A stretch of 64,000 nucleotides of DNA from an uncultured virus (IMG/VR IMGVR_UViG_3300046727_000499). Taxonomy: Duplodnaviria; Heunggongvirae; Uroviricota; Caudoviricetes. The stretch lies in IMG/VR virus record IMGVR_UViG_3300046727_000499; one strand, given 5' to 3'. Below the pieces are notes generated by a model that had not been told where the DNA came from, made no database searches, and saw only the letters and a list, made by a program, of their open reading frames with translations. The translations under genes were made by a program, and so were the position numbers. Shown in pieces: positions 1,207 to 47,980 of the stretch; positions within the stretch are counted from its first letter, which is position 1, and every line of letters begins with the position of its first letter.

Positions 1207-1659
1207 TCACCGGGTGAACAGCGTGATGACGATCGTCGCGGTGCTGATGATCACCGTGCCGAGCAGGAGCGCCGACCACGCTGGATGTGCGACGGAGAAC
1301 CAGCCCAGCCACTCCTCGACGCGCACGTTGCGCGAGCGATGGGCCATGAGCTGCGGGTTCGGGTTCACCCGTTGCGTGTGACGGTACTGGCCGTACACGG
1401 CAACGGGTGAACCCGGCGCCGGCGGCAGCGATGGAGCAACGAACTGGGCGTAGAGCGCCGGTGACTGCGCGTAGAGTAGCACCCCCATCGTCTCGCGCTG
1501 TCGCTGCTTCGCGTGTTCGTCGGCGACGATAACCAGTGCGTGAATGACGGCGGGGAACCAGAGCAACCAGATGAGGAAGAAGTTCGCCAGCGCCTGGCCC
1601 GCGCGATTGACCATCAAGAGCGCGATGGGCGGGCAGAGAAAACACATCAGATAGTCCAT
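1207..1659 (-). CDS. YqaE/Pmp3-family membrane protein with C-terminal extension
   Basis: MDYLMCFLCPPIALL...LLWFPAVIHAL motif; second TM segment at C-terminus; reads through a hairpin element. Confidence 0.7.
   Translation of the reverse strand: MDYLMCFLCPPIALLMVNRAGQALANFFLIWLLWFPAVIHALVIVADEHAKQRQRETMGVLLYAQSPALYAQFVAPSLPPAPGSPVAVYGQYRHTQRVNPNPQLMAHRSRNVRVEEWLGWFSVAHPAWSALLLGTVIISTATIVITLFTR
1360..1415 (+). mobile_element. Hairpin element copy 1
   Basis: CGGGTTCACCCGT-TGCGTGTGACGG-tactgg-CCGTACACGGCA-ACGGGTGAACCCG. Confidence 0.85.
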
Positions 1660-1694
1660 GGTAGTTTCCTTTCGTGTCGTTGGTACACACGGTG

Positions 1695-1952
1695 TCAATC
1701 GGAGACGCGGGTGCAAACCGGAAAGTCGCGGTCATCTTGATCGCGCATCTCGCGCTGGATGATCGCGCTATCCACCGTCGCCTCAATCTGGGCATAGGTC
1801 ATATGCTGAAAGCAATCCGTATCTTCGATGGCGATGCCACCGAACCACCCGGCGCGGATGCCGGTCTCCGGTTCGTCGCCTTGCCAATCGAGTACGACCT
1901 CGATGATCTTGCCGCAGACGGGACAAGTGACCTGCTCAACATCCTCGTTCAT
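1695..1952 (-). CDS. Hypothetical protein with CPVCG motif
   Basis: Translationally coupled to the WYL ORF. Confidence 0.55.
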   Translation of the reverse strand: MNEDVEQVTCPVCGKIIEVVLDWQGDEPETGIRAGWFGGIAIEDTDCFQHMTYAQIEATVDSAIIQREMRDQDDRDFPVCTRVSD

Positions 1953-2206
1953 GCCGGCACGCCCTGAACCGGCAGCAGATGCACCGACGCGAAACGATCA
2001 ACCCGAAAGGAGATCGTCGTGCCGCGAATGCTATCCCATCCTCTGAGAATATCCGCGCCGGCGTCGGTTGCGTACAGGCGCTCTGGGATGATCACGCGGG
2101 CCTTCTCGGTGACATCGCCGGTGCGGTAGAGCACGACGAGCGCGCCTTTCGTGCGGATGGCATTGTGCAGATTGTCATACAGTCGTACGGTGTCGGAGGT
2201 GCTCAT
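1949..2206 (-). CDS. Stand-alone WYL-domain protein
   Basis: Y...R.I.PERL...L.GWD..RG....FRVDR pattern. Confidence 0.7.
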   Translation of the reverse strand: MSTSDTVRLYDNLHNAIRTKGALVVLYRTGDVTEKARVIIPERLYATDAGADILRGWDSIRGTTISFRVDRFASVHLLPVQGVPA

Positions 2207-2276
2207 GAGACTTACCTCTCTGAGTGCTTGCCCTGTCGGTGGTCAGACGCCGGCGGGGCTTCTTCTTGTCTGTAAC

Positions 2277-2308
2277 CATTCTAACACGTATCAGCGTTGA
2301 TTGTCAAG
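2277..2308 (-). promoter_or_regulatory. Sigma70-type promoter for WYL operon
   Basis: Minus strand TTGACA-N18-TAGAAT; near-duplicate of 2864-2894. Confidence 0.65.
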
Positions 2309-2332
2309 CGTTTTGGCGATAATGCGAACACG

Positions 2333-2366
2333 GAAAAGCCCTCCGCTATGGGGCGAGCGGAGGGCT
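2333..2366 (-). terminator. Terminator after hicAB
   Basis: AGCCCTCCGCT/AGCGGAGGGCT stem with T-tract on minus strand. Confidence 0.6.
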
Positions 2367-2380
2367 ACGGGTCGGGGGGG

Positions 2381-2608: not shown

Positions 2609-2619
2609 CGGGTTCTCCT

Positions 2620-2814
2620 TTATGGCCGCCATCCGGCTTGCCGTTGAATGTTGTTCCATGTGCCGGGCGGAATGGTGTCGCTCGGCTTGCCCGCCACCGT
2701 GACCTTGCCGGGCTTCGTGGGATGCTCAAGTTGGCGATGGCTGCCCGTCTGAGAAGTGATGCGCCAGCCGTCCGCGTGGAGCCGCTTGAGTGCATCCGCC
2801 ACCTTCGTTGCCAT
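2620..2814 (-). CDS. hicA: HicA mRNA interferase toxin
   Basis: L.ADGW....QTGSHRQLEHPTKPGKVTV...IPPGT..NI.RQAG. Confidence 0.9.
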   Translation of the reverse strand: MATKVADALKRLHADGWRITSQTGSHRQLEHPTKPGKVTVAGKPSDTIPPGTWNNIQRQAGWRP

Positions 2815-2840
2815 CCCCGGCCCCCCTGAGTGTATCACCG

Positions 2841-2926
2841 TGTCAAGCACCTCTTGACAGTATCATTCTAACACGTAATCGCGTTGATTGCAAGGGGTTG
2901 CATGCATCAATCAAACACGCTAGAAT
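2841..2926. promoter_or_regulatory. Divergent promoters and operator palindrome between hicA and HTH gene
   Basis: TGTCAAG-N5-CTTGACA palindrome; TTGCAA-N17-TAGAAT (minus) and TTGCAT-N17-TAGAAT (plus). Confidence 0.6.
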
Positions 2927-2932
2927 AGAACG

Positions 2933-3130
2933 ATGAGAGGCTACATGACACTCAGGGAAATGGCAGAGCGGCTCGGGTACAAGAACGGGAATGGCCTGCG
3001 GTCGCAGATCCGGTTCGGCGCGCTCCATGCGGAGAAGGTGGGGCGAGACTGGGTCGTGTCTGAGCAGGAGTATGCGCGGTACGTATTGGAGCACGCGGGG
3101 AAGCCGGGGCGAAAGCCAAAGCCGCGCTGA
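2933..3130 (+). CDS. Small HTH (excisionase-like) DNA-binding protein
   Basis: MTLREMAERLG...LRSQI..GAL.AEKVGRDWVV. Confidence 0.75.
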   Translation: MRGYMTLREMAERLGYKNGNGLRSQIRFGALHAEKVGRDWVVSEQEYARYVLEHAGKPGRKPKPR

Positions 3131-3333
3131 TGGAGGATGAATGCCACGGATCAAATCAACTCCGGCAACCCGCGCCGTGATCCTCGCCTATCTGCTCGCG
3201 CCGCGGGCGAATGAGCCTGCCGCGCCCACGGAGACGGCAATCCCTGACGATACACACACACAGACACACACATCGCCGCACGACGATCAATCAGGCGTAT
3301 CCGGTTTATCCAGTTGTGACAAGGGAAAGTAGG

Positions 3334-3379
3334 TGGCTGGGGCGCAGGGATTCGAACCCCACCTACCTGATCCAGAGTC
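3334..3379 (-). other. att core: 3' half of tRNA-Gln(CTG), attP-like
   Basis: Minus strand GA-CT-CTG-GA-TCAGG...GGGGTTCGAATCCC...CGCCCCAG-CCA; no 5' half; next to the integrase 3' end; GTGATAGGC arm-like repeats at ~3407 and ~3480. Confidence 0.85.
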
Positions 3380-3506
3380 GTTTTAGGTGGCAAAGAGTGG
3401 GGGAGAGTGATAGGCCGTTTCCTCACCCCCGCTGGGAGAACCGGCAGTTCAATCCGCTCACTCTCTGGCATAGCCCCACGTGATAGGCACACAAAATCAC
3501 ACACAC

Positions 3507-4670
3507 CTATCGGCCACCAAACAGTTCGTCCATTGCATCCGCCACTTTGTCTCTCCCCTCATCCGTCTCATGGGTGTAGTACTCAGTCATCGATAGCGAT
3601 GCATGCCCCAGGAGCGTCTGGATGTCCTTCGGCGGCACTCCGCGTGATGCCAGCAATGTCGATGCCGTGTGCCGCAGATCATGCGGGCGGATACGTGGTA
3701 AGCCAGCACGGTCGAGTGCCACATGGAAGTCTTTACCAACGTTGCCCCGGTCCAACGGCGTCCCGATCGGTGTGCAGAACACAAGGTCATGTTCTTCCCA
3801 TTTGTCGCCGGCGCGCTTCCGCTCAAATGCCTGTTGTTCCTGGTGACGCTTGAGCGCCTCGACAACGAACCGCGGCAGCCGCAAGGTGGCGAACTTTAGC
3901 TTGCTCGTCTCCCGATCCACACGGCGCACCACACCATCGACGCGCTGCATCTGCCCGGTGATCGAGAGCGTCCGTTTGGTGAGATCGATGTCTTCCCACC
4001 TGAGCCCCATCAAGACGCCTTGTCGCAGGGCGCATGCGAGGGCAAGGGTGTAGAAGGCGATCAACCGGTCATCAGCATTCTTCTCCAGGAACGTCTCCGC
4101 CTCTTTCGCGCTCAGCGTTCGATACCGCCGTTTGGGTACATCGGGCCGGTCCGCGAAGTGGGCGGCATTGCGCGGTACCGCACCTGCCTTATAGGCGTGC
4201 TCCAATGCGGCGTGGATGATGGCACGATGGTACTCCACCGTGCGCAGGCTCAGACCCTTCTGGCGGCTCGTGGTGAGCAACTGCTTGATATGGCGCGTGT
4301 GCACCTGATCGAGCCGGAGAGTGCCGATCGCCGGGTTGATGTGGTTCCTGATCTCCGCCCGATAGGATTCCAGGGTTCGGGGCGCGTTCTTGTTCATCGA
4401 CTCTTTGTAGGCAAGCCATTCTTCCAGCCACTCAGACACCTTCATCTTGCCCGCGTCCAGGTCCGCGCCGGCGTCATACGTCGCACGCAGATCGAGCAGT
4501 TGTTTGTTGACGCCTGCTTCACTACGACCGCGCACACTCTTGACGTTCGGTGAGCCATCGGGCTTGCGACCGAGGGTGATCTGACCCCACCACTGCTGCG
4601 GGCCCAGCTGCTTGACGGTCCCCGACCCCTTCGGCCGGCGCGGTTTCGGCGAGTCCGTCATGGCGGTCAC
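3507..4670 (-). CDS. int: Tyrosine integrase
   Basis: R (ALRQG), HDLRH, LGH and Y catalytic motifs; N-terminal arm-binding and SAM-like regions. Confidence 0.95.
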   Translation of the reverse strand: MTAMTDSPKPRRPKGSGTVKQLGPQQWWGQITLGRKPDGSPNVKSVRGRSEAGVNKQLLDLRATYDAGADLDAGKMKVSEWLEEWLAYKESMNKNAPRTLESYRAEIRNHINPAIGTLRLDQVHTRHIKQLLTTSRQKGLSLRTVEYHRAIIHAALEHAYKAGAVPRNAAHFADRPDVPKRRYRTLSAKEAETFLEKNADDRLIAFYTLALACALRQGVLMGLRWEDIDLTKRTLSITGQMQRVDGVVRRVDRETSKLKFATLRLPRFVVEALKRHQEQQAFERKRAGDKWEEHDLVFCTPIGTPLDRGNVGKDFHVALDRAGLPRIRPHDLRHTASTLLASRGVPPKDIQTLLGHASLSMTEYYTHETDEGRDKVADAMDELFGGR

Positions 4671-5671: not shown

Positions 5672-5699
5672 TGCACCCTCCTTCGCGTACCAGTCCTGC

Positions 5700-6380: not shown

Positions 6381-6426
6381 TTTCGCCTCCAACAGAGGCG
6401 ATTCTAACTTGAAGTTGTAGAAATCC

Positions 6427-6455: not shown

Positions 6456-6473
6456 CGCATTTGGAGGTGAGAA

Positions 6474-8900: not shown

Positions 8901-9881
8901 ATGAGTGTTTGGGCGCAGGCATGGGCATACGAGCAGCGCGCGGGCTCCGCAGGCGCGAAGGCTGTCCTTGTCGCGCTCGCGGTCTTCGCGGACGAAGAAG
9001 GGTTGTGTTACCCGTCGCAAGAGCGGATCGCGGGCATGACGGAGCAAGGGGTCCGCACGGTCCGGTTGCATCTCGCCTCGCTTGAAGAGACGCGGTTGAT
9101 TGAGCGGCGGCGGAGACGACGACCAGACGGCAAATTCCTGAGTGATGGATTCGTCTTGCTCGCACCCGCAAAGCGCCTGAAGCCGCACATTCCTTCCCCC
9201 GACGAAACCCTGCGGCAGATTCTGCCAACGGCAGATATTGCCGCTGGTTATCCAGTGGCAGAATCTGCCGCAGGTGAAAAGCCGGATTCCCTTACAGGGC
9301 AAGGAAACAGTCCAGTGGCAGATTCTGCCGTCGGCAGATCCTGCCAACGGCAGAAAACTGCAGAACCAGCGGCAGATTCTGCCAAACCCCCCAGACCCCC
9401 CTATAAGGAAGAAGTTAATTTAACTGAACCGTCAAAGGGAGCTCGCTTCGCTCGCCGCGCACGCGCGCGCGAGGCCGAGCACAAAATGTCTCTCGAAGAT
9501 TTTCATCCAAACGAGAAACAGATTGACCAGGCCATCGGCTACGGCGTGCCCGCAGAGCAGGTGGCCTTCGAGACGGAGCAGTGGCGCGACCACCACACGG
9601 CGAAGGGCGACGTGGTGAAAGACGCCGCGGCCTCGTGGCGAACGTGGATGCGGAACGTGCCGAAGTTCAGTCGGGGCAGCCCCACTGGTCAGTACAAGAA
9701 CTCACAGGAAAAGACGCAGGACGCAATCACACGATACGCCGAAAGGATCAAGCAGAGTGGAACGACTGAAGACCATGAACCCGTCGCAGTTGAGCGCGCT
9801 CGCATTGCTGATCGGAGCGTTCCGCTGGACGATGGACGACCTCGCGATGGCGTCATGGGGCCACTACCTCGCAGGGATTGA
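8901..9881 (+). CDS. Replication initiator (N-terminal HTH)
   Basis: AK.VLVALA.FAD..G.CYPSQERIA.M; internal iterons. Confidence 0.85.
   Translation: MSVWAQAWAYEQRAGSAGAKAVLVALAVFADEEGLCYPSQERIAGMTEQGVRTVRLHLASLEETRLIERRRRRRPDGKFLSDGFVLLAPAKRLKPHIPSPDETLRQILPTADIAAGYPVAESAAGEKPDSLTGQGNSPVADSAVGRSCQRQKTAEPAADSAKPPRPPYKEEVNLTEPSKGARFARRARAREAEHKMSLEDFHPNEKQIDQAIGYGVPAEQVAFETEQWRDHHTAKGDVVKDAAASWRTWMRNVPKFSRGSPTGQYKNSQEKTQDAITRYAERIKQSGTTEDHEPVAVERARIADRSVPLDDGRPRDGVMGPLPRRD
9214..9383. repeat. Iteron array / likely lytic origin of unit B
   Basis: About 7 copies of quasi-palindromic GGCAGATTCTGCC followed by an AT-rich tract near 9402-9428. Confidence 0.75.
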
Positions 9882-10269
9882 CGCCGACACGCTCCGCGAT
9901 GTGATCGACCATTGGGTGCTGCATGAATCGCGGCCGCCGTCGATTGCGGATCTCGTTGACCGTCTCGCGGCGCGGCGCGGCGCGGACGCAGAGAGCGCAT
10001 GGAAGCACGTCCGGTCCATCCTCATGAGCGGCGGCTTTCGCGATCGCGTCCACGGTGGCTTTCAGCCACGGTGCTTCACGGGTGATCTTGCGCTGGAGGA
10101 TGCCGTCGCGTCTGCCGGTGGCTGGGCTGACCTCGCAAAATCAGACGAGAAGGATCTGGTCTGGAGAAAGATGGATTTCGTCGCTGCCTATGCAAAGCAA
10201 TCGGGCATCCATCAGTCGCTTGTGGCACTCACCGCTGGGGCGAAGGAACTGACCGATGGCCGGAGCTAG
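9775..10269 (+). CDS. Replication-associated protein (helicase loader/inhibitor-like)
   Basis: Position after initiator; W...L....D.L...I..W......PPSIADL and GGW.DL patterns. Confidence 0.6.
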   Translation: MNPSQLSALALLIGAFRWTMDDLAMASWGHYLAGIDADTLRDVIDHWVLHESRPPSIADLVDRLAARRGADAESAWKHVRSILMSGGFRDRVHGGFQPRCFTGDLALEDAVASAGGWADLAKSDEKDLVWRKMDFVAAYAKQSGIHQSLVALTAGAKELTDGRS

Positions 10270-10780
10270 CGCCACGCCAGTCGGAAGCCGCCTGTGGGAA
10301 TCCTGGCTGAAGGGGTTCAAAGCCTTCGTTGCCCTCACGGAAACCCGGTACGTGAAGCGCGTTGAGGAGAGCCAGGAGCGCCCAGAAGACACCGGTCTCG
10401 CACGCCGCGCCGATCTATTGGGCCGCGAACTCGTCTTCTCGATGGCGCGGACGGATCACTTCGAGAAGACGGGCGAAGTCCTGCCGCATCCGAGCGAGGC
10501 GAAGCGTGATGAAGGGTCTGCATGTGACCGTGCAGTGCGGTACACGGCAAACCCTTCATCATCTGATGAACGACGGTTCGCGGCCATCTATCTCTGCCCC
10601 GTCTGTAAAGCGACCGAGGCGTCGGCGGGGCGGTTCGCGCGGGCGGACGTGATGCCGGGGAGCAAGCACTTTGGCGTGCGGATTCCCTGTCCGAAGTGCT
10701 GCCCGCAGGAGCACGGCGCATACGTCATGGCACATGGGGCAGCGCCGAACATGACGCCGGAACTGGCAGGTATCCGATGA
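10256..10780 (+). CDS. Hypothetical Zn-finger protein
   Basis: CPVC and CPKC; reads through hairpin element copy 2. Confidence 0.6.
   Translation: MAGASATPVGSRLWESWLKGFKAFVALTETRYVKRVEESQERPEDTGLARRADLLGRELVFSMARTDHFEKTGEVLPHPSEAKRDEGSACDRAVRYTANPSSSDERRFAAIYLCPVCKATEASAGRFARADVMPGSKHFGVRIPCPKCCPQEHGAYVMAHGAAPNMTPELAGIR
10507..10561 (+). mobile_element. Hairpin element copy 2
   Basis: TGATGAAGGGTC-TGCATGTGACCG-tgcagtg-CGGTACACGGCA-AACCCTTCATCA. Confidence 0.85.
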
Positions 10781-12167: not shown

Positions 12168-12832
12168 AATCCACGATGGGGTCAGTTGGAAAGGGTTTGC
12201 ATGAGGACCGTTCTGGCGGTTCATCGCAAACCCTTTCCAAACGCGTTGTACGCCTCGCTGACGTGCGTTTGGCGCGAAAAGGCAATCCACACCGTTCTGC
12301 CCGATTGCGCGTCGTGTGGGGCATCTCAGCCGCTTTGCTGTATCTGCTGTGCATCATCGGCGCCAACTGGCTGCTCGCCACGTTCGGCGTCGTCACCATT
12401 CTCGGTCTTGCCATGCCCGCGGGCGTCTTTGCCGCGGGCGTCAGTTTTGGCGCGCGTGATTGGCTTCAGGAAACGGCGGGGCGGCCGGCGGTGATCCTCG
12501 GTATCGCCGTCGGGGCGATCCTCTCAACCGTGGTCTCACCCCTCCGGTACGCGCTCGCCAGCGGACTGGCGTTCCTGTTCAGTGAGACGTGCGACATGCT
12601 GGTCTACAGCCCACTGCGCACGAACCATCGTGCCTGGGCCGTGACCGCGTCGAATACGGTGGGCGCCGTCGTCGACAGTGCCGTGTTTCTCCTGATCGCT
12701 TTTGGCACGCTCACGTTCTTCTGGGGGCAGGTGCTTGGCAAGGAACTCATGATCGCGCCGGCGCTGGTGGTGCTGTGGCTGGTGCGCGGCCGTCGCGGTG
12801 GTGCGCCTGCTGCCGTGGCGGTGGCCTCATGA
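12164..12832 (+). CDS. VUT/YhhQ-family transporter (putative queuosine-precursor transporter)
   Basis: Multi-TM; ANW, PAGV..AG..F..RD.LQE..G, AS.LAF..SE..D..VY..LR, SN.VG.VVDS..F..IAF; start uncertain. Confidence 0.85.
   Translation: MKSTMGSVGKGLHEDRSGGSSQTLSKRVVRLADVRLARKGNPHRSARLRVVWGISAALLYLLCIIGANWLLATFGVVTILGLAMPAGVFAAGVSFGARDWLQETAGRPAVILGIAVGAILSTVVSPLRYALASGLAFLFSETCDMLVYSPLRTNHRAWAVTASNTVGAVVDSAVFLLIAFGTLTFFWGQVLGKELMIAPALVVLWLVRGRRGGAPAAVAVAS
12186..12240 (+). mobile_element. Hairpin element copy 3 (variant core)
   Basis: TTGGAAAGGGTT-TGCATGAGGACCG-ttctgg-CGGTTCATCGCA-AACCCTTTCCAA. Confidence 0.75.
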
Positions 12833-16888: not shown

Positions 16889-16923
16889 CGTGTAGTGCGT
16901 TCACATGCAAACCCCTTTCCAAG
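16865..16923 (-). mobile_element. Hairpin element copy 4
   Basis: Minus strand CTTGGAAAGGGGTT-TGCATGTGAACG-cactaca-CGTTACTCGGCA-AACCCCTTTCCAAG; absent from the unit C portal end. Confidence 0.85.
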
Positions 16924-29630: not shown

Positions 29631-29643
29631 GAGTGAGGTCCTG

Positions 29644-31205: not shown

Positions 31206-31207
31206 CG

Positions 31208-33969: not shown

Positions 33970-34572
33970 TTACGCTTTCGCGGCTGCTCGTTGCGCGGCT
34001 GCTCGTTGCGCTCCTGCTCGCTGCAACGCAGACCACGGCTTACCTTTCTTCGCGGCGCTGATGGCAGCGCGATGGGCGTCTGAAAAGCGTTTGCCCTTCT
34101 TGGCGAGGCTGATCTTCATGCCACGGTCTGGTTCGGGCGGCGGCAACTGAACGGTCACGCGGCTCAGGCGGATATTCTCAATGTGTTCCGCCGACAACTT
34201 GCGTCCGGTCAATGCGGCACTGATCTTCGCGTTGCGTGCGGGATTGTACTTGGCCACCGCGCGTCGTTTCTTCCAGCCCAGTTGCGTGTTCAACAGATCG
34301 TATCCGCCCGCACACAAAGCGGTTACCCAATAGTGTTCCCGTGCATCTGCGTGGTCGATGGCGACGCAATCAATGATGACCATCTCGGGCATGACGCCCA
34401 ACGCGATGAGCGAACGAACCCAATCATCCTTCACCGTGCGACCCCGTCCGTGTCGATGGCGGCGCAGGCGATCTTTGGGATCGGTCGTTTGTCCGACATA
34501 GCGCGGGCGCAGCGTCGTCGGCTCAATGAGCATGTAGATGTAGGTGAACAGGCTGGTAGACTGAGCGAGCAT
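33970..34572 (-). CDS. Free-standing GIY-YIG homing endonuclease with NUMOD3-like repeats
   Basis: YIY...YVGQT...R.R.H...E..W...N; KIS.A..G...S..H...IS repeats. Confidence 0.9.
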   Translation of the reverse strand: MLAQSTSLFTYIYMLIEPTTLRPRYVGQTTDPKDRLRRHRHGRGRTVKDDWVRSLIALGVMPEMVIIDCVAIDHADAREHYWVTALCAGGYDLLNTQLGWKKRRAVAKYNPARNAKISAALTGRKLSAEHIENIRLSRVTVQLPPPEPDRGMKISLAKKGKRFSDAHRAAISAAKKGKPWSALQRAGAQRAAAQRAAAKA

Positions 34573-35971: not shown

Positions 35972-36321
35972 ACGTCCCGGAGCTCCTCGCCAGCATCATC
36001 CTGACGATCGTCGGCGCGGCGACCACCTGGCTGCTCGCCGCGGGCGCGCTCTGGCTGCAGAAACACGTCTCGAGCGACAAACTCGCGCTCGGCATGACGA
36101 TCGCCCAGGTCGCGGTGCAGGCGACGGAGCAGATCGCCGCGAAGACCGGCTGGGACGGCGACACGAAGTTCAAGGTGGCGCAGGAGCGACTCCTCGCCCT
36201 CGCAAAGAACACTGGCATCAATTTGACGCCGGAGCAGGTGAGCAGCCTCATTGAGCACGCAGTGCACCAGTTGAAAGAAAGCCAGGAGCTCCTCCGCGCA
36301 GCAGCAGATCCCTTACCCTGA
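35968..36321 (+). CDS. Phage holin, LL-H-like
   Basis: Near-identical to 589-942. Confidence 0.8.
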   Translation: MNVPELLASIILTIVGAATTWLLAAGALWLQKHVSSDKLALGMTIAQVAVQATEQIAAKTGWDGDTKFKVAQERLLALAKNTGINLTPEQVSSLIEHAVHQLKESQELLRAAADPLP

Positions 36322-36347
36322 CATTTCTCCCCTCTTCCCCATCTCCC

Positions 36348-36390
36348 GCCCCTTCTCGCTGTCGCGGCGGGGAGGGGCCTTTTTATTTGT
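36348..36390 (+). terminator. Terminator after holin
   Basis: GC-rich stem followed by TTTTTATTT. Confidence 0.6.
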
Positions 36391-36601
36391 TGGGCGCTCC
36401 TTCCGGTGGCGGCGGGGCAGGCGAGGCATCCTCCCATGCCAGTGCGATCACGTCCCGCATGCTTCCAACCGGGCCGGGATGCGCGTCGAGCCAGTCCCGC
36501 ACCCGCTCAATCGTCCCGCGCCGCTCGTTGTCTGCGAGATAGAGCGTGAGAAACGCGAACTCGCTCATGAAGATCGGTGGGTACGTCTGCTTTGCCATCA
36601 C
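36383..36601 (-). CDS. Hypothetical protein
   Basis: GGAGGAG SD, coupled to upstream ORF. Confidence 0.55.
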   Translation of the reverse strand: MMAKQTYPPIFMSEFAFLTLYLADNERRGTIERVRDWLDAHPGPVGSMRDVIALAWEDASPAPPPPEGAPNK

Positions 36602-37044
36602 TCCTCCTCCTCGCGCCCGTCCGTGGCTGTCGCGGTCAGGGCAATGCGCACAACCTCGGCAATCGCGTGGCGCATCCCCCGCGTAAACGAGTGGGCGAGA
36701 GAGGGCTTGGTGGGCAGGGTGTGCTCGGATCGGCTCTCGGCGCGATCACTGACCTGCTTCATCGCCTCCCGCAACTGCGCTAGCCCGCGCAGGGCGGCAT
36801 CACGCTCGCGCTCTGCGGCGGCGAGGCGGGCGCGGAGGGCGGCATTGACATCTTCCTGTCGCGCAATCTCCTCTACTAGCACGCGCGCCCGATCATGCGG
36901 ACGCTTCTCGAAATAGTCGGGATCAAGCGCGTCGAGCCGCTCCATCATTTCCGTCGCAATCATGCCGCCGTCGTCGCTGGTGAAGTGCGGAAAACGGTTG
37001 AGTTTGCTCATCGCTGCCCCCGCGACATGTTGTGGGTCACTCAT
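36598..37044 (-). CDS. Hypothetical coiled-coil protein
   Basis: GGAGGAGG SD. Confidence 0.6.
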   Translation of the reverse strand: MSDPQHVAGAAMSKLNRFPHFTSDDGGMIATEMMERLDALDPDYFEKRPHDRARVLVEEIARQEDVNAALRARLAAAERERDAALRGLAQLREAMKQVSDRAESRSEHTLPTKPSLAHSFTRGMRHAIAEVVRIALTATATDGREEEE

Positions 37045-37057
37045 CGTAGTCCTCCTC

Positions 37058-37163
37058 CGTGGGCGGGATGGTTTGAACCGCTCTTCTATGGTTTATCCCG
37101 TCCCAACGCGCTTTTCAAGCGCCACCCCTATGGGTCGCTCTTCTCGCCCGCTCCGTAGCCCTC
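37058..37163. repeat. Conserved ~105-bp non-coding element, copy 2
   Basis: Near-identical to 1021-1126. Confidence 0.85.
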
Positions 37164-41698: not shown

Positions 41699-41941
41699 AT
41701 GGAACCGAAACGCCGCGGGCGCCCGCGGATTGGTCAGCTTGCGACATTCACGGTCAGGCCGGAGCAAAAGGCGCAGATTGAGGGGCTGGCAAAGCTCTGG
41801 GACGTGAATCAATCGTGGGTTTTTCGTTATTGCCTCGATCAAATATTACCGTCGCTTAGCACGAATCCACCTAATCCCTTTGCCACTGATCGTGGTGATA
41901 TGGCGATCGGGTTGAAGCACGAATGTCAGGAGGTCGCATAA
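41699..41941 (+). CDS. Ribbon-helix-helix (Arc/CopG-like) regulator in the Cro position
   Basis: RGRP...ATFTV.PEQ..QIE.LA......QS.VFR..L. Confidence 0.65.
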   Translation: MEPKRRGRPRIGQLATFTVRPEQKAQIEGLAKLWDVNQSWVFRYCLDQILPSLSTNPPNPFATDRGDMAIGLKHECQEVA

Positions 41942-42008
41942 CGATGCCTGAGATCGCAGCCGCGGGTATCCCCACCATTGTTGCCTACCTCACGGCGCCA
42001 CGCGCGGA

Positions 42009-42063
42009 TGAAGAAGCGTTTGCCAAGAAGCGCACTGCACGCTCTCGTGCAAACGCTTCTTCA
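42009..42063 (-). mobile_element. Hairpin element copy 5
   Basis: Minus strand TGAAGAAGCGTT-TGCACGAGAGCG-tgcagtg-CGCTTCTTGGCA-AACGCTTCTTCA. Confidence 0.8.
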
Positions 42064-42120
42064 GCTATCGGTCACGAGGGTATGCCAGACGCATGCTTGA
42101 CCGACGCATCTTTTTACATT

Positions 42121-42175
42121 TTGGATCACCCGATGCCGTGTACAGCCGAACTGTCACATGCATCGGGTGATCCAA
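42121..42175 (-). mobile_element. Hairpin element copy 6
   Basis: Minus strand TTGGATCACCCGA-TGCATGTGACAG-ttcgg-CTGTACACGGCA-TCGGGTGATCCAA. Confidence 0.9.
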
Positions 42176-42199
42176 CTCCCGCGAGAGGGGGTGAGGGGG

Positions 42200-42458
42200 A
42201 TGGACGGGAAACTGATCCGCGAGGGCGACCTGGTGGACCAGCTGATGGACTTCAACGCGCGGCTGATGCAGCGCAACCGGGAGGACCAGCGCGCGCTTTG
42301 GATCACCCGATGCCGTGTACAGCCGAACTGTCACATGCATCGGGTGATCCAAACGACGACTGACCGAGTTGGCGCTCGCACTCGAACAGCGCCGGCGCAA
42401 ACACGCGCCAATCGACATGCCGACAGCAGACGGGCAAACGTCTGAGGCGGCGGAGTGA
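42200..42458 (+). pseudogene. Early gene frameshifted by hairpin element copy 7
   Basis: Similarity to 6795-6971 continues in another frame after the 55-bp element. Confidence 0.6.
42298..42352 (-). mobile_element. Hairpin element copy 7 (identical to copy 6)
   Basis: Same 55-mer as 42121-42175 with unrelated flanks. Confidence 0.9.
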
Positions 42459-42486
42459 ACTGGATCCTGCTTAGGAGATTGTACAC

Positions 42487-42750
42487 ATGGAATCATCAAT
42501 GGTCAAGGAATCAATGGGAAGCCCTTTGCATGTGACCGCAGAGGACGGTACACGGCAAAGGGCTTCCCACCCTCCTGTCGTCATGGCGGACGAATCGGCA
42601 TGGGTGCGGCTGCTCGCCCCGCGGAGCCCACAGGAGGCAGCGATGGCGCAGCGGATTGCCGTGGCGTCGCGGCACATCTGGGCATTCCGCCTTCGTCTCA
42701 CGGTGGAGGAGCGCATGGCGTGGTATCGCGCATGGGGGTGGCAGGAATGA
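42487..42750 (+). CDS. Hypothetical protein (reads through element copy 8)
   Basis: AGGAG SD; ATGA overlap with next gene; start uncertain. Confidence 0.45.
   Translation: MESSMVKESMGSPLHVTAEDGTRQRASHPPVVMADESAWVRLLAPRSPQEAAMAQRIAVASRHIWAFRLRLTVEERMAWYRAWGWQE
42515..42569 (+). mobile_element. Hairpin element copy 8
   Basis: TGGGAAGCCCTT-TGCATGTGACCG-cagagga-CGGTACACGGCA-AAGGGCTTCCCA. Confidence 0.9.
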
Positions 42751-43388
42751 GTCGGAAAGAGCCCGCGCGTCCGACGCATGAGGACGCGAAAGCGATCCGC
42801 CGGGCCGTCGCGTATCTGGAGAAGCTTGGCCGCCTGGACGAACTCCAGCGCGCGGTGATGGCGGATGTCGCGGACATCCTCGACGAGGCGCTCACGAGCG
42901 GAGCGGTGATCCGGATCCGCATCCTGAATCAGGGGACGCCACCGAGCGAGAGGAAGCGACAGGCGGCGCGGGCCACGCTGGTCAAGGCGCGCGCCAGGAA
43001 GTTCGTCTACGCGGCGCCCGAGTGGACGTCGGAGGAGAACGTGCTCTTCCGCCACCTGTGGGCGGAGACGGACACGCCAACCGGGGTGATTGCCGACCGT
43101 TTCGGGCGCACGCCGACCGCGGTACAGAATCATGCGACGGAGCTGGGCGTGCGTCGATCTCCGGGCTATCTGGCACGCACGACGCCACTCGGTCGCGCGC
43201 GTCTGGTGATCGCGCGGCGGCGGGCGCAGGAGCAGTTGGCACAACGGAATTTGGAAAGCCCTTTGCACGAGAGCGTGGAGTGCGCTTCATCCTTCTCCGC
43301 TTGCCGCGAACCGTCTCTGTGCGGTCTCGTGCAAGCGGAGAAGGATCGGCAAAGGGCTTTCCAACAGGAACTGGTGGAAGTGATATGA
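42747..43388 (+). CDS. DNA-binding protein with 38-aa element-derived insertion
   Basis: Homolog of 11070-11615. Confidence 0.65.
   Translation: MSRKEPARPTHEDAKAIRRAVAYLEKLGRLDELQRAVMADVADILDEALTSGAVIRIRILNQGTPPSERKRQAARATLVKARARKFVYAAPEWTSEENVLFRHLWAETDTPTGVIADRFGRTPTAVQNHATELGVRRSPGYLARTTPLGRARLVIARRRAQEQLAQRNLESPLHESVECASSFSACREPSLCGLVQAEKDRQRAFQQELVEVI
43251..43364 (+). mobile_element. Hairpin element copy 9 (outer, interrupted)
   Basis: TTGGAAAGCCCTT-TGCACGAGAGCG-tggagtg-CGCTTC[insert]TCGGCA-AAGGGCTTTCCAA. Confidence 0.85.
43289..43346 (-). mobile_element. Hairpin element copy 10 (nested inside copy 9)
   Basis: Minus strand ATCCTTCTCCGCT-TGCACGAGACCG-cacagaga-CGGTTCGCGGCA-AGCGGAGAAGGAT. 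Confidence 0.85.
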
Positions 43389-44383
43389 CAACAACGTCGA
43401 CCCGGTCGGTGACCATCCGACCGGAACTGGAGATCAGCTCAGAGGAGCGGTTCTCGCACGAGGACATCGAACTGATGCGCGCCACGATCTGCAAGGGCGC
43501 GAGCGATGCGGAGTTCCGGCTGTTCCTGAACCAATGCGTGCGCACGGGGCTGGATCCGTTGGCACAGCAGATCTACAGCGTGCCGCGCGACGGTGGGCGC
43601 GTGATCCAGGTGGCGATTGACGGCTATCGGCTGGTCGCGCAGCGCACGGGCGCCTACGCGGGCAATGACGAACCGACGTTCGACACCGAGGAGGGCGAGC
43701 ATCCGAACATCGCCCGCGTGACCGTCTGGCGGCTCGTGGATGGTGAACCGCGTTCGTTCACGGGGATCGCGCGGTGGCAGGAGTTCAAGCCGCCGCCCCG
43801 CCAGGACATGATGTGGCTGAAGATGCCGTGGCACATGCTGGCAATGGCCGCGGAACGGCAGGCGCTGCGGAAGGCGTTCCCGCAGGAACTGGCCGGGCTG
43901 GAAACGAGCGACGATCCGCCGGTTGAAGGCCCTCATGCCGCGTACCGCCAAGACGGTCACGTGCATGAGGGCCTTCAAGAGGCGACACCGGCGCGCGTCA
44001 TCCGCACCGCGCCACCGCCGCAGCCGATCGCCCGGCCCCGCGCAGGTGGTTCCTCACGGTCACAACTCCGTGAAACAGTCGCGAACGCTGCACGGACCGC
44101 GATCAAGGCGACCATCGCCCCGATTGGTTCACCCGATGCACGTGACCGTGCAGTGCGGTACGCGGCATCGGGTGAACCAATACCGGCGGGACCGGATGAA
44201 GAAGACGCAGTGCTGCGGGACGAACTGCGCGAGCTGGGCACGCGCGGGTTCGACCTCGACAAGTTCCTGACGGGGCGAAACAAGGAACTGGACGACCTGA
44301 CGCGCGGGGAGCTGGAGGGGATCCTGCCGAACGCGCGAGCGGTGGTGGCGAAGCGGGTGGAGCGGCTGACGCAGCAGGCATAA
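43385..44383 (+). CDS. bet: Bet/RecT-family protein with two element-derived segments
   Basis: Homolog of 7409-8299. Confidence 0.9.
   Translation: MTTTSTRSVTIRPELEISSEERFSHEDIELMRATICKGASDAEFRLFLNQCVRTGLDPLAQQIYSVPRDGGRVIQVAIDGYRLVAQRTGAYAGNDEPTFDTEEGEHPNIARVTVWRLVDGEPRSFTGIARWQEFKPPPRQDMMWLKMPWHMLAMAAERQALRKAFPQELAGLETSDDPPVEGPHAAYRQDGHVHEGLQEATPARVIRTAPPPQPIARPRAGGSSRSQLRETVANAARTAIKATIAPIGSPDARDRAVRYAASGEPIPAGPDEEDAVLRDELRELGTRGFDLDKFLTGRNKELDDLTRGELEGILPNARAVVAKRVERLTQQA
43923..43978 (-). mobile_element. Hairpin element copy 11
   Basis: Minus strand TTGAAGGCCCTCA-TGCACGTGACCG-tcttgg-CGGTACGCGGCA-TGAGGGCCTTCAA. Confidence 0.85.
44123..44181 (+). mobile_element. Hairpin element copy 12
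   Basis: ATTGGTTCACCCGA-TGCACGTGACCG-tgcagtg-CGGTACGCGGCA-TCGGGTGAACCAAT; empty site in unit B bet. Confidence 0.9.
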
Positions 44384-44444
44384 CAGGTCAGAGTTGGGCG
44401 GGTGCGGCAGCGCGCCCGCTTTTGTATCGGAGAGGGAGGCAGCG

Positions 44445-44930
44445 ATGGACACGCGACCATACGGCACGATCCCGAGTGACGAAGACTTCGCGGACACCGA
44501 TTGGCTGTCCGCGGCGGACCTTGAAGCGATCGCGGATCGGCTGATCGAGACGAAACCCGACCTGCAGCATCTGTACGACTTCAAGACGGTTTATTTCTGG
44601 AAGCGTTCGGGGGGCGTGACGGGCGGGCAGGCGACGATGGGGAAGTGCCGCCGCGTCTCAGGCGATCTGAAAGCGATGGCGCCGGGCGCCGACTTCATGG
44701 TCTGGCTCGCGGCGGATCATTGTCGGGAACAGGAGATCACCGTCTATCAGGCGGAAGCCTATGTGTTTCACGAACTGATGCACACAGCACAGGACGACAA
44801 GGGCAGGCCGCGCATCCGGCCGCACGACTTCGTGGGTTTCGCCGCGGAAGTCAGAGAGTTTGGACTCTACGACCAGATGCTCCAGGCCGCCGGTGTTGCC
44901 TTCCAACAGTTGGCTTTGGTGCCTGCGTAA
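44445..44930 (+). CDS. Putative phage metallopeptidase
   Basis: HELMH; homolog of 8356-8841. Confidence 0.8.
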   Translation: MDTRPYGTIPSDEDFADTDWLSAADLEAIADRLIETKPDLQHLYDFKTVYFWKRSGGVTGGQATMGKCRRVSGDLKAMAPGADFMVWLAADHCREQEITVYQAEAYVFHELMHTAQDDKGRPRIRPHDFVGFAAEVREFGLYDQMLQAAGVAFQQLALVPA

Positions 44931-44933
44931 CGG

Positions 44934-44989
44934 CTGGGAAAGGGTTTGCCGTGTCGAGTACCGGCTCGCACACGCAAACCCTTTCCCAG
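44934..44989 (-). mobile_element. Hairpin element copy 13
   Basis: Minus strand CTGGGAAAGGGTT-TGCGTGTGCGAG-ccggta-CTCGACACGGCA-AACCCTTTCCCAG. Confidence 0.85.
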
Positions 44990-45015
44990 AATGTGCCCGC
45001 TTGTGTATCGGGTCA

Positions 45016-45071
45016 TCGGTTGACCCGTTGCCGTGTACGGCCGGCACCGTCACACGCAACGGGTCAACCGA
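45016..45071 (-). mobile_element. Hairpin element copy 14
   Basis: Minus strand TCGGTTGACCCGT-TGCGTGTGACGG-tgccgg-CCGTACACGGCA-ACGGGTCAACCGA. Confidence 0.9.
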
Positions 45072-45090
45072 ACCAAGGACGGGGGCGCCG

Positions 45091-46041
45091 ATGGCGCGGT
45101 TGCCATGGTTTCGGATGTGGTCGGAGGCACGAAACGATGCGAAGTTGCGTCGGCTGGATGATGCGGAGTTCCGTGTCTGGTTCAATCTGCTGTGCTTCGC
45201 AGCCGAGCAGGAAGAGCGCGGTCACATCGCCCGGAGCGACGCGTTTCTCCTGGCCGTTGAAGTGTGCAACGGCGATGTCCCACTGCTGAAACGCGCGGTG
45301 GCGTTACTGGCGTTACATCATCTCGTCCGTGCGGAATGGTGCATTGAGGCGGAGCAGGATGCGGTCACGATCACGTTCGCAAGTTGGGATCGCCGCCAAT
45401 ATGACAAACCGTCCGACCGGCCAGAAGCCGTTGCAGAGCGGGTAAAACGGCATCGCGCGAAAAATGAAACGCCTCGTAACGCGGCTGAAACGCGCGAAAA
45501 CGCGCGTAACGCTGAGATTAGATTAAGAGAAGAGAAGAAGAGAGAAGAGAAGAGACCTCCCATAGACATACCCGGTCCCCGCGCGCCCGCACCCGCGCCC
45601 GCACGCACACCTGCGCGCGAGGCGCCGCCTGCTCCGGTGGCTGCGGTTGTGAATGCGCTGACCCAGGCACTTGCGTATGACGAGGATGCCCGGCTCTCGG
45701 CGAAGGAACACGATCGGCTCGTGGCATCGGCGACGGAGATCCTCGGCGCGGGCGGCACGCCGGAGGATGTGCCGGTCCGGGCGGAACGCTACGCCCGGAA
45801 GTACCCATCGATCGCGGTGACGCACGGCGGCCTGGCGGGGCACTGGGGCGAGTTGGCGGTCGAGCCACCGGCACGTGCCCCGCCGAATGGACGTGGTGCC
45901 CCGGTCACGTTCACGCGACAAATCGAGACGAATAACGCGGCCGCATCCGAGGAATTTCTCGCCGTCATGGAAGGCGCGGCACATGGATCATCTGCAGTTC
46001 AACGGCCAAATGAACCGCCTCGCGGCCGCCTACCGGATTGA
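45091..46041 (+). CDS. Lytic replication initiator, unit C (different family from unit B)
   Basis: WFRM.SE..ND.KLRRL...WF.LLC.A; W...Q...S......ERV.RHR; GAAACGC/GTAACGC repeats at ~45465-45512. Confidence 0.8.
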   Translation: MARLPWFRMWSEARNDAKLRRLDDAEFRVWFNLLCFAAEQEERGHIARSDAFLLAVEVCNGDVPLLKRAVALLALHHLVRAEWCIEAEQDAVTITFASWDRRQYDKPSDRPEAVAERVKRHRAKNETPRNAAETRENARNAEIRLREEKKREEKRPPIDIPGPRAPAPAPARTPAREAPPAPVAAVVNALTQALAYDEDARLSAKEHDRLVASATEILGAGGTPEDVPVRAERYARKYPSIAVTHGGLAGHWGELAVEPPARAPPNGRGAPVTFTRQIETNNAAASEEFLAVMEGAAHGSSAVQRPNEPPRGRLPD

Positions 46042-46522
46042 GATCCCGGCAGCGACCAGGGCGGCATACTGGACCATCTTTGGTTCGGGCGATGATGCGC
46101 GCTTCGCGACCGCATGTGAGCAGGCCCTGCGGACGGAGCGCAGCTTTCCGACGCCGGCCGCGCTCAGCGAACTCATCAACGGCTCGGTGGAAATCCGGCG
46201 TCGGACGGGAGTCGCTGGCGGGTCAGGCGGGCCGCCGCGTCAGTGGACCGCCGCGGACTTCGACGTGCCGTTCGTGGCGAAGCCGACGCCCTGGCGGCCC
46301 GGCTCGCGTGCACACGAGCGATGGCTGCACGCATCGGCGCGGTTGATGACGCTGCTCGAGCGCCGGCTGACCGAGCGCCTGGCGGAACTGGACAACCGGC
46401 CCGATGATCCCGAGCTGCAGCGCCGCGTCCTGGTGCTGACGCGCACGCTGGCCGAGCGGAGCACCTGGCACGCGCACTTCGAGGCGACCGGGGAATCCCT
46501 GATGCCCGCAGGTGCCCCATGA
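45983..46522 (+). CDS. Replication-associated hypothetical protein
   Basis: YW......F..AC........FPTPA.L; follows initiator. Confidence 0.55.
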   Translation: MDHLQFNGQMNRLAAAYRIEIPAATRAAYWTIFGSGDDARFATACEQALRTERSFPTPAALSELINGSVEIRRRTGVAGGSGGPPRQWTAADFDVPFVAKPTPWRPGSRAHERWLHASARLMTLLERRLTERLAELDNRPDDPELQRRVLVLTRTLAERSTWHAHFEATGESLMPAGAP

Positions 46523-46845
46523 GTACCCCCCGCGCCATCATCGACGCGCACACCACGGAGGCGGAGTTTCAGTGGCAGCTCATGCAACTGGCGCGCTTGT
46601 GCGGGTTCATGTGTTATCACCCGTTTGACTCGCGCCGCTCCGCGATTGGCTATCCCGACCTCACACTCGTCCATGCCGAGCGTGGCCAACTCGTCTTTCT
46701 TGAGGCAAAACGCGAGTCAGGGAAGACGACGCCGGCGCAGGACGCATGGCTCATCGCGCTCGGTGCGGTGCCGGGCGTTGTCGCGCGGGCGGTCCGGCCT
46801 TCCGATTGGGAAACGATCGCGGCAATCCTGACGGGAGATGGTTGA
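46519..46845 (+). CDS. VRR-NUC domain nuclease
   Basis: TEAEFQ, GYPDL.L, FLEAK...GK.TPAQ..W. Confidence 0.85.
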   Translation: MSTPRAIIDAHTTEAEFQWQLMQLARLCGFMCYHPFDSRRSAIGYPDLTLVHAERGQLVFLEAKRESGKTTPAQDAWLIALGAVPGVVARAVRPSDWETIAAILTGDG

Positions 46846-47093
46846 TGGCACACGCACTGCATCCGATCCAGGCCCTGGCGCCGCCGCCGGTTACCGGCGA
46901 TCAGCGCATCTCCTCCACCGATCTCTACCGCCGACTCGGTGACGTGCTCCATCGCGTTTCGCGCGGCCATCAGCGGGCCATCATCACGACCCACGGTCGG
47001 CCCGTCGTCGCGATCATCTCCGTCGAGGAGTTGGAGTGCCTGCGGGCGATCGAACGTGAGTGGCGCGCGCAGCGTGGGGAGGAATCGCCATGA
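46845..47093 (+). CDS. Phd/YefM-like antitoxin, orphan
   Basis: IS.TDL...LG.VL.RV......IITTHGRPV.AIISVEE. Confidence 0.75.
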   Translation: MAHALHPIQALAPPPVTGDQRISSTDLYRRLGDVLHRVSRGHQRAIITTHGRPVVAIISVEELECLRAIEREWRAQRGEESP

Positions 47094-47884
47094 GTGCGCC
47101 TCTCGACCTCGCGGCCGTGCGAAACGCGCGAAAAGGCAATCCACACCGTTCTGCCCGTTTGCGCGTCGTCTGGGGCATCTCAGCCGCACTCCTGTATCTC
47201 CTGTGCATCATCGGCGCCAACTGGCTGCTCGCCACGTTCGGCGTCGTCACGGTCTTCGGACTCGCGATGCCCGCGGGCGTCTTCGCCGCCGGCGTCAGTT
47301 TCGGCGCGCGCGACTGGCTTCAGGAGACGGCGGGGCGGCCGGCGGTCATCCTCGGCATCGCCGTCGGGGCGATCCTTTCGACGGTCGTCTCACCCCTCCG
47401 GTACGCGCTCGCCAGCGGACTGGCGTTCCTGTGCAGTGAGACGTGCGACATGCTGGTCTACAGCCCACTGCGCACGAACCATCGTGCCTGGGCCGTGACC
47501 GCGTCGAATACGGTGGGCGCCGTCGTCGATAGCGCCGTGTTTCTGCTCATCGCTTTTGGCAGTCTCGCATTCTTCTGGGGGCAGGTGATCGGGAAAGAAC
47601 TCATGATTCTGCCGGCGCTCGTGGTCCTCTGGTTGGCGCGACGGCGGCGGGCCGTCGCGCGCACGACGAAGGATGAAGCAATGCCAACCCCAGCGATGAA
47701 TGGCCCGGGTGCATGCGGGAAGGAGTGCCCGCTTGCGGGAGGCAAGGTTGCGGGCAACACCTGTCCGTGGATCGACCACTGCGCGATGTGGCGCGACGAA
47801 CTGGCCTTCGAGCGGTTGGAGCAGCGGGAGAAGGCGGAGCGGCTGGCGAAAGAGCACCCAGAGATGTTTCGCGGTCCGCGGTGA
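47090..47884 (+). CDS. VUT/YhhQ-family transporter with Cys-containing C-terminal tail
   Basis: Core near-identical to 12164-12832; stop codon lies in element copy 15. Confidence 0.85.
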   Translation: MSAPLDLAAVRNARKGNPHRSARLRVVWGISAALLYLLCIIGANWLLATFGVVTVFGLAMPAGVFAAGVSFGARDWLQETAGRPAVILGIAVGAILSTVVSPLRYALASGLAFLCSETCDMLVYSPLRTNHRAWAVTASNTVGAVVDSAVFLLIAFGSLAFFWGQVIGKELMILPALVVLWLARRRRAVARTTKDEAMPTPAMNGPGACGKECPLAGGKVAGNTCPWIDHCAMWRDELAFERLEQREKAERLAKEHPEMFRGPR

Positions 47885-47933
47885 ACCCTTTGCCGTGTAC
47901 GGCTGGAACCGTCACATGCAAAGGGTTCACCGC
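47878..47933 (-). mobile_element. Hairpin element copy 15
   Basis: Minus strand GCGGTGAACCCTT-TGCATGTGACGG-ttccag-CCGTACACGGCA-AAGGGTTCACCGC. Confidence 0.9.
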
Positions 47934-47940
47934 TCACATG

Positions 47941-47980
47941 TGGGAAGGGGTTTGCGTGATGGCGGGCCATACACGGCGAA
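47941..47980 (+). mobile_element. Degenerate hairpin element
   Basis: TGGGAAGGGGTT-TGCGTG-ATGG-cggg-CCAT-ACACGGC; right outer arm lost. Confidence 0.5.

Follow-up and report, generated by a model that had tools for sequence, protein, structure and literature searches.

In this study, a family of short DNA hairpins was analysed in a 64,000-nt stretch of DNA from an uncultured virus (IMG/VR record IMGVR_UViG_3300046727_000499; 63.9% G+C), hereafter called the window, and in phage and metagenome DNA carrying the same hairpins. The elements, 54–59 nt long in intact copies, are probably non-autonomous, miniature, hairpin-forming mobile DNA residing in temperate phages of soil and rhizosphere bacteria. 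Copies were shown to be gained or lost precisely at the hairpin foot, without target duplication or target motif, in either orientation, in and between genes and inside other copies. Each element consists of a basal arm of 12–13 bp and an invariant TGC/GCA, closed by an apical core that is asymmetric: a single unpaired purine faces CG, and the core further comprises a stem of 3 bp, a bulged G, a stem of 4 bp and a loop of 5–8 nt. The family had been noticed in a sequence-only reading of the window, in which 15 intact copies and a decayed one were listed and a structure-defined mobile element was proposed.

Mobility was examined by removing the element in silico and comparing the joined flanks with those of relatives. 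The 54-nt copy L007:2459 matched three empty relatives with 97.5% identity over 199 nt and no gaps, the 56-nt copy L009:515 matched three empty relatives with 100% identity over 200 nt of flanks, and the 57-nt copy L033:3214 had an empty counterpart in L027 with 91% flank identity. No target duplication was present at these three cleanest filled/empty sites. In the window, phage B (from the integrase gene at 3510–4670, minus strand, through the second holin gene at 35914–36318) could be compared with phage C (from approximately 36400 to beyond the window end). Direct alignment of the phage C copy at 44123 with phage B (8036–8197) and with G006, in both of which the orthologous site was empty, showed a net insertion of 57 nt; an AT dinucleotide at this site is either a 2-bp duplication or chance. 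The G006 sites orthologous to the copies at 42121, 42298, 42515 and 43923 were also without the element, with flanks 70–85% identical. No target motif was detected, the oriented flanks carrying at most 0.3 bit per position. The sites of the 16865 and 12186 copies were tried as clean empty sites in phage C and rejected because the alignments were too diverged.

Several copies were identical to one another. Those at 42121 and 42298 had unrelated flanks, and G002:49852 and G002:53325 were in opposite orientation; on the evidence of their sequences, such identical copies at unrelated loci appear to represent recent copying. Phages B and C, which are 70–90% identical in homologous blocks, had no orthologous copy in common. 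Among copies with usable 120-nt flanks, a single orthologous pair with diverged flanks was found, which was 94.3% identical overall and whose lone difference inside the element was at the unpaired purine. Nesting was observed as well, with removal of one copy restoring another in seven cases and L241 being the eighth, and five of the eight nested insertion points fell within 4 nt on the 3′ side of the core of the host copy, past its inner stem and before the unpaired CG. Orientation was balanced, with 43 copies against 40 overall and 7 plus against 9 minus in the window, where the genes are mostly on the plus strand. The mobility proposed from the window is borne out by these precise filled and empty alleles, by nesting and by the occurrence of identical copies, in either orientation, at loci that are unrelated. 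Orientation was mixed, in contrast to the strict orientation with transcription that would favour an RNA motif.

The family was defined with a covariance model (R1), a check suggested in the sequence-only reading, which was built from an alignment (A1) of 14 oriented intact window copies and run over the window with filters off. The 14 training copies scored 58–79 bits on one strand and 30–44 bits on the other; R1 thus tells the two strands apart, indicating that the asymmetry of the core is real and scorable. The model separated the family from the background, with 52–79 bits for the 15 intact window copies versus 25.9 bits for the best unrelated match, a palindrome at 9210–9273. When 391 kb of DNA from the window, phages and metagenomes was searched at E values up to 1e-11, R1 gave 83 matches, 77 of them distinct, and a script searching for TGC...GCA with complementary arms found the same 83 orientable copies plus 6 unrelated palindromes.

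The covarying stems described from the window were upheld by A1, in which 99.0% of the cells were paired, compared with 67.9% in column shuffles and 36–43% when the 3′ partner was slid; two-sided changes occurred in 19 of 24 pairs and one-sided changes in none. In the 77 distinct copies from all sources, 97.7% of the cells were paired (including the outermost position, which pairs only in copies with 13-nt arms) versus 70.1% in shuffles, and 435 two-sided and 4 one-sided changes were counted in 1771 cells, with G-U pairs nearly absent. The 77-copy alignment was fitted to R1 and thereby favours structure; the model-free script gave the same perfect arms. Scarcity of G-U pairs would fit a constraint on DNA or on both strands together, unlike the usual RNA families, and the Watson-Crick-only covariation agrees with the description of the element as structure-defined. 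Both strands folded strongly as single-stranded DNA (−22.7 to −27.1 kcal/mol, z −8.2 to −9.4). The energy fold favoured a core register slightly different from that of the sequence-only reading; however, covariation at the Y/R pair (T-A to C-G in 8 distinct copies) and at the W/W pair (T-A to A-T in 7) of the 3-bp middle stem backs the register of that reading.

Features of the core were counted in 82 of the 83 copies, parsed by script. The bulged G was retained in 82/82 and the unpaired CG in 77/82, confirming across the family that the extrahelical G and the purine-versus-CG asymmetry are kept; the unpaired purine was A in 74 copies and G in 8, and the middle stem was TGT/ACA in 69. Loops of 6 nt (38 copies) and 7 nt (31 copies) were the usual lengths. 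Beyond TGC/GCA, the arms were 12 nt (n = 32), 13 nt (n = 34), 14 nt (n = 6) or 11 nt (n = 1) long, and ten copies had an arm mismatch. The statement that the arms differ almost completely among copies was overstated, since lengths of 12–13 nt and a loose consensus, T-G-G/A-W-N-A-A-S-S-S-K-W, are shared (T in 55/73, G in 53/73, A in 52 and A in 46). Three arm positions were nearly always G or C, and these swapped freely with compensation. Five copies had a form of 72–86 nt with a longer, self-paired tip. Relative to the bulges, the apical loop was found either way round (43 T..G versus 24 C..A), and the same loop words recurred in reverse-complement form; one hexamer, for example, was present in four copies and its complement in another four. 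This flip/flop pattern recalls the hairpin-primed replication of parvovirus ends.

As had been noted from the window, copies were present both in and between genes: in the RecT gene, in ORF 10256–10780, at gene ends and at intergenic sites, some of which lie after a stop codon and ahead of the following ribosome-binding site. In phage C RecT, in-frame read-through of the copies at 43923 and 44123 adds approximately 19 residues each to the C-terminal part, and the RecT proteins of phage B and G006 lack both inserts. The portal gene and ORF 47060–47884 take their last codons and stop codon from the copies at 16865 and 47878, respectively. That gene ends are preferred may be due in part to tolerance of insertions there. 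A peptide encoded by an element resembled homologues in G002 and G003; the DNA of these homologues is not a hairpin, and the resemblance was set aside as coincidence.

The RecT-family ORFs of G002 (2755–4359) and G004 (28998–31190) encode 534 and 730 aa, respectively, versus approximately 300 aa usually, and are enlarged by a large internal insertion starting with Cys. To judge from its sequence, this insertion looks like an intein, and RecT in carrier phages seems to gather two kinds of selfish insert.

The distribution of the family was surveyed with a pattern for the commonest core variant only, which matches 7 of the 15 intact window copies; the databases scanned may leave out the window's own genome. 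The scan gave 48 loci on 30 viral contigs in IMG/VR and 24 loci on 20 contigs in a metagenome collection, and no family copy was found with it in 185,579 species genomes, the sole match there, in a haloarchaeon, being ascribed to chance because its flanks were non-complementary. BLAST of one copy gave no match in 50,697 GenBank phage records or 72,556 plasmids at E values up to 1. Metagenome contigs with a recognisable gene were all phage-like, encoding RecT, Mu-type portal, RusA, C5 methylase, HNH-AP2, CI-like repressors and large serine recombinases, and no housekeeping gene was found among the 77 ORFs checked on the metagenome carrier contigs. The carriers span phage lineages: in the window phages the portal is of the Phage_portal type and the integrase is a tyrosine integrase, the portal of G002 (99% complete) is of the Mu type, and serine integrases are encoded on some metagenome carrier contigs. 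No description of such a phage-borne hairpin family was found within open-access full text.

Five sequencing runs matching the region, from soil and rhizosphere DNA metagenomes, were used as contigs; no RNA run was among those listed as matching. Contigs of runs X2 and X4 matched only a 31-nt core (42527–42557) of the 42515 copy and had other, mutually complementary arms; a shared core with different complementary arms points, at the level of sequence, to further family members in those samples. In the four metagenome runs compared over the region, only variant contigs of related phages were found, and in one contig a joint skips 99 nt around the 44123 copy, a stretch that was possibly replaced.

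The sequence-only reading held that the mobilising enzyme is not encoded in the window. With Pfam and PHROGs, no HUH, DDE, IS110-type or other transposase was recognised in 86 window ORFs, many of the phage proteins being unannotated, and none was found in 97 of the 125 ORFs called in the two complete carrier phages G002 and G003 (most structural genes left out) or in 77 metagenome ORFs. These results are consistent with the claim and do not prove it. Y1_Tnp (PF01797) was absent from five carrier phage records in a six-frame search whose control was positive in 6 of 14 known genomes. An HUH or recombinase gene flanked by the motif, also suggested earlier, was sought; apart from the lack of HUH in these five records, the only integrase in the window is the ordinary phage integrase at 3510–4670, and no copy lies within approximately 2 kb of it. 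Two further candidates were rejected, the unannotated proteins of approximately 385 aa near copies having no common family and a 387-aa protein beside the integrase having no transposase-like structural neighbours.

Families present in all or nearly all of seven phage genomes or fragments included a lysin-like protein, RecT, prohead protease, tape measure and a small replication-region protein. A RecT-family recombinase is encoded in all seven carrier genomes compared, and RecT is the only widely shared family with an obvious recombination role; being a common phage gene, it is a candidate link only.

A parent element was searched for in IMG/VR with a 14-mer of the core end, representing one end variant only. 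It gave 125 matches, including 26 with the partner motif within 70 nt (24 of them intact family copies), 3 nested-split copies and 96 unrelated sequences; a looser pattern gave, among the matches listed, at least 12 copies with the partner motif and at least 111 matches without it. Guide-type target choice was also considered. The top mutual information between flank and arm was 0.234 versus a null 95% value of 0.297 with 12-nt boundaries and 0.354 versus 0.315 with 13-nt boundaries; apart from this single borderline pair, flank-arm covariation was not above the null and gave no sign of guide-type choice.

Comparison with known systems agreed with the earlier statement that the element cannot be assigned to a named family. 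Rfam gave 0 matches at the gathering score over the whole window, and at E values up to 1 only five sub-threshold matches to miRNA-precursor hairpins were obtained in 41900–48500 (17–29 bits versus gathering scores of 64–110); hallmarks of attC, REP and IS200/IS605 were absent. The attC sites of integrons have RYYYAAC / GTTRRRY ends, a crossover within the stem and a minimum size of approximately 57 bp. The element resembles them in size, in the precedence of structure over sequence, in strand-marking extrahelical bases and in variable terminal structure. It differs in having T-G-G...C-C-A ends (consensus T-G-G/A-W...W-C/T-C-A) and boundaries at the stem foot, and in being dispersed, with copies scattered in phage early regions and at gene ends, rather than arrayed beside intI. 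GTT/AAC was found only beside TGC/GCA and in the reverse order along the strand relative to attC.

Insertion of IS200/IS605 elements occurs 3′ of a fixed tetra- or pentanucleotide, and their left and right hairpins are distinct. The present element shares with them the lack of target duplication and an imperfect hairpin with unpaired bases that could be read by a protein on single-stranded DNA, a mechanism cited in PMC3116915. It is unlike them in that it has no flank motif, its flank-arm covariation does not exceed the null, its hairpin is single and symmetrical, and no TnpA was found. REPINs, according to the account in PMC3116915, are doublets whose REP sequences are conserved and whose conserved parts lie at the ends, are chromosomal and occur near a single-copy RAYT gene. 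Like REP and REPIN sequences, the element is miniature, non-autonomous hairpin DNA apparently mobilised in trans, and new copies occur within or beside older ones; unlike REPINs, its apex is conserved and its ends vary, its contexts are all phage, and it has no GTAG/CGTC tag, this tetranucleotide being absent from the arm and flank position profiles, and no Y1 protein in the five carriers. Because the apex is conserved and the ends vary, the layout is the reverse of that of REPINs and attC. Rickettsia palindromic elements (RPEs), as presented in PMC10969869, are palindromic repeats of approximately 150 bp in Rickettsia chromosomes that are inserted in frame in genes and translated as extra peptide. 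The in-frame insertions of the present family, which comprise two RecT segments of 19 residues and a further one in ORF 10256–10780, resemble these, whereas the element is 54–59 bp long, phage-borne and apparently unrelated to RPEs in sequence. In its workings, the element is most like REP/REPIN or attC-type structured DNA, but the GTAG/CGTC tag, the attC end boxes and a cassette array are absent, and no RAYT was found in the five carrier records.

We suggest that the element would move via a folded single-strand or cruciform form, and that an enzyme acting in trans would recognise the conserved asymmetric core, the arms needing only to pair. Such an enzyme might be encoded by the host, might be a phage protein that lacks annotation, or might belong to general repair machinery that is structure-specific. 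Several points weigh against a mobile element of this kind. The single-strand intermediate is one that we infer, and no mobilising enzyme was recognised in the carrier phages in the Pfam, PHROGs and six-frame searches. No autonomous parent with separated ends was found among the 125 matches of the 14-mer, nor was a solo end found beside a gene. Were one enzyme to read the entire apex on one of the strands, the loop would not be expected in both orientations. The fully identical pair at L009:515 lies at an identity step, from 99.98% over 4478 nt (one mismatch) to 96.7% over 243 nt and then no homology, and this copy may have arrived by recombination, not by fresh insertion. Nesting may come partly from tolerance of insertions in junk DNA rather than from targeting. 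Finally, the gene positions are approximate, having been obtained with our own GC3-based heuristic ORF picker.

Other explanations were weighed against the miniature mobile hairpin. It is rather unlikely that a phage-restricted selfish hairpin transposes as a folded single strand or dumbbell, cut at the stem foot and joined into new sites whatever their sequence, through a class of enzyme or through host machinery that has so far not been tied to transposition. In such a process, fold-back copying or hairpin mismatch correction would regenerate the basal arm from its partner in each cycle, which would give Watson-Crick-only two-sided changes in the arms, no target duplication or motif, and the flip/flop of the loop.

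A conventional duplex MITE (miniature inverted-repeat transposable element), where halves of approximately 25 bp serve as terminal inverted repeats around a 5–8 bp spacer and a DDE transposase acts in trans, is an unlikely explanation. The termini are mostly 5′-TG...CA-3′, as given by the T and G counts at the first two arm positions, and DDE elements typically have such ends; within each half, conservation is strongest in the inner part, in the manner of a transposase-binding domain. However, the three clean pairs had no target-site duplication, with the 2-bp AT at 44123 as a possible case, and the halves stay perfectly complementary while diverging among copies, which independent terminal inverted repeats would not. 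Moreover, no DDE transposase was found in the carrier phages (window, G002/G003 and metagenome ORFs), and none of the 125 matches represented a copy with its ends parted by a gene.

The boundaries of the element coincide with the end of complementarity and leave no scar and no target motif. These observations, and the transposase not found in carriers, would also suit a selfish palindrome without a dedicated transposase, whose foot is cut by general structure-specific nucleases such as Holliday-junction resolvases and whose hairpin or dumbbell is ligated into nicks or breaks. Proteins of suitable kinds are encoded by the carriers, namely endonuclease VII/HNH-like and resolvase-like proteins in the window, VRR-NUC in G002 and G003 and RusA in L069. 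This explanation is nevertheless doubtful: it does not account for a specific asymmetric core kept in 77–82 of 82 copies, other palindromes of the window have not multiplied, and reintegration without a recombinase is hypothetical.

Alternatively, the copies might be duplex recombination or binding sites resembling tyrosine-recombinase cores, spread by homologous exchange and driving mosaicism, not transposition. Such a core has two imperfect, inverted half-sites of 12 bp around a 6–8 bp spacer, and in the element the half-sites TGCATGTGACCG and TGCCGTGTACCG flank a spacer of 6 nt (38 copies) or 7 nt (31 copies); several copies are located at homology breakpoints between related phages, and the seven carriers compared all encode a RecT-family recombinase. 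Exchange, however, fails to explain identical copies at unrelated loci, nesting, and the insertion in RecT where orthologues are uninterrupted; conserved complementary arms outside the core are unneeded in a duplex site, and the integrases differ among carriers or are unrecognisable in some. We consider this quite improbable. A structured RNA motif, such as a regulator, terminator or processing site kept for its RNA fold, has the conserved unpaired bases and covarying stems that are the usual signature of RNA families, but is very improbable given the mixed orientation relative to mostly plus-strand genes (7 plus and 9 minus in the window; 43 versus 40 overall), the near absence of G-U with only 4 one-sided changes in 1771 cells, the sub-threshold Rfam matches and the copies read in frame within coding sequence.

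The window copies were clustered, 12 of 16 being located in 42009–48389, approximately one-tenth of the window. Fourteen of the copies listed in the sequence-only reading were intact at the positions given there, each start carrying the palindrome described. In phage B and upstream of it, the copies were as follows. The copy at 1360–1415 (plus strand, 56 nt, 73.2 bits) lies in the 3′ part of a minus-strand ORF (1207–1716, Pmp3-like). The copy at 10507–10561 (plus, 71.2 bits) has one C/A mismatch beside TGC and is read through in frame in ORF 10256–10780. The copy at 12186–12240 (plus, 58.1 bits), with a variant core of TGA/TCA and TC replacing CG, is 13 nt upstream of the start of homology to phage C. 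The copy at 16865–16923 (minus, 68.1 bits) spans the end of the portal gene, with the stop codon inside the element, and between the homology blocks flanking it phage C is 59 nt shorter than phage B.

In phage C, an intergenic copy at 42009–42063 (minus, 65.0 bits) is a CGA/TCT variant. It is followed by the two identical copies at 42121–42175 (minus, 72.7 bits) and 42298–42352 (minus, in a small ORF at 42158–42445), and by that at 42515–42569 (plus, 68.8 bits); these three are the ones absent from orthologous G006 sites upstream of RecT. The copy starting at 43251 had been called intact; in fact, it runs from 43251 to 43365 (plus), just upstream of the RecT start codon (ATG, 43385), and the 3′ half of its core is interrupted by a nested copy in the opposite orientation at 43289–43346 (minus, 65.2 bits). 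The two in-frame copies in RecT (43385–44380) are at 43923–43978 (minus, 69.8 bits) and 44123–44181 (plus, 78.6 bits; 19 codons net). Further downstream are copies at 44934–44989 (minus, 64.8 bits), directly after the stop codon of a metallopeptidase gene, at 45016–45071 (minus, 73.0 bits), which is intergenic, and at 47878–47933 (minus, 73.3 bits), which spans the end of ORF 47060–47884 with the stop codon inside. The list was also incomplete, an additional copy being found at 48333–48389 (plus, 51.9 bits) in a small ORF (48255–48536). The sequence at 47941–48000 (strand not assigned), regarded earlier as a decayed copy, is a possible remnant: a family-like left arm, TGC and part of the 3′ core can be discerned by eye, whereas the right arm is missing and the model gave no match at E values up to 10.

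Copies were often located at points where homology between related phages starts, stops or shifts, as at 12186, 16865, 44934–45071 and L009:515. They may act as exchange points adding to phage mosaicism.

With regard to the window as a whole, annotation with Pfam and PHROGs and direct repeats spaced approximately 35–38 kb showed a tandem of two siphovirus-like temperate phage genomes that are homologous to each other, as well as the end of a third, the first phage genome of the window ending with a holin gene at 535–939. Comparison of 1–1126 with 35380–37163 showed 91–96% identity at the lysis end and 70–90% elsewhere, the genomes being related but non-identical. G001, the closest record, is a virus contig of 35,506 bp that bears direct terminal repeats. 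The tandem arrangement could represent true tandem prophages or an assembly walking through related phages. Other features include a HicA/HicB toxin-antitoxin pair near the integrase gene (2384–2850, minus), a GIY-YIG homing-endonuclease-like gene ahead of the phage B lysis genes (33973–34572, minus) and two adjoining N6/N4 DNA methylase genes before the phage C terminase gene (49422–52138, plus), which are 75% identical over 300 nt. Interlocking palindromes formed from the repeated 13-mer GGCAGA-N-TCTGCC and its variants were observed at 9209–9384 beside replication-type genes. This cluster looks like an iteron-type origin and is outside the hairpin family, scoring only 25.9 bits with the hairpin model.

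We regard the hairpin family as active or recently active and as a variant, not described before, of mobile DNA in the form of miniature hairpins. Bacterial chromosomes offer well-documented cases of small non-autonomous mobile DNA, and interest in the element is tempered by its belonging to a kind already known; its restriction to phages and its inverted pattern of conservation are the notable features. A multi-copy, actively turning-over family confined to phage genomes is undescribed in the open-access literature searched. The element inserts without the footprints of known transposase classes and is tolerated as extra peptide in essential-looking phage genes. If the enzyme is found, it could represent a new structure-specific, sequence-independent DNA insertion activity. 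Because copies are located at homology breakpoints, the element is a likely contributor to phage mosaicism, and even without the enzyme it marks exchange among unrelated soil phages with hosts in common.

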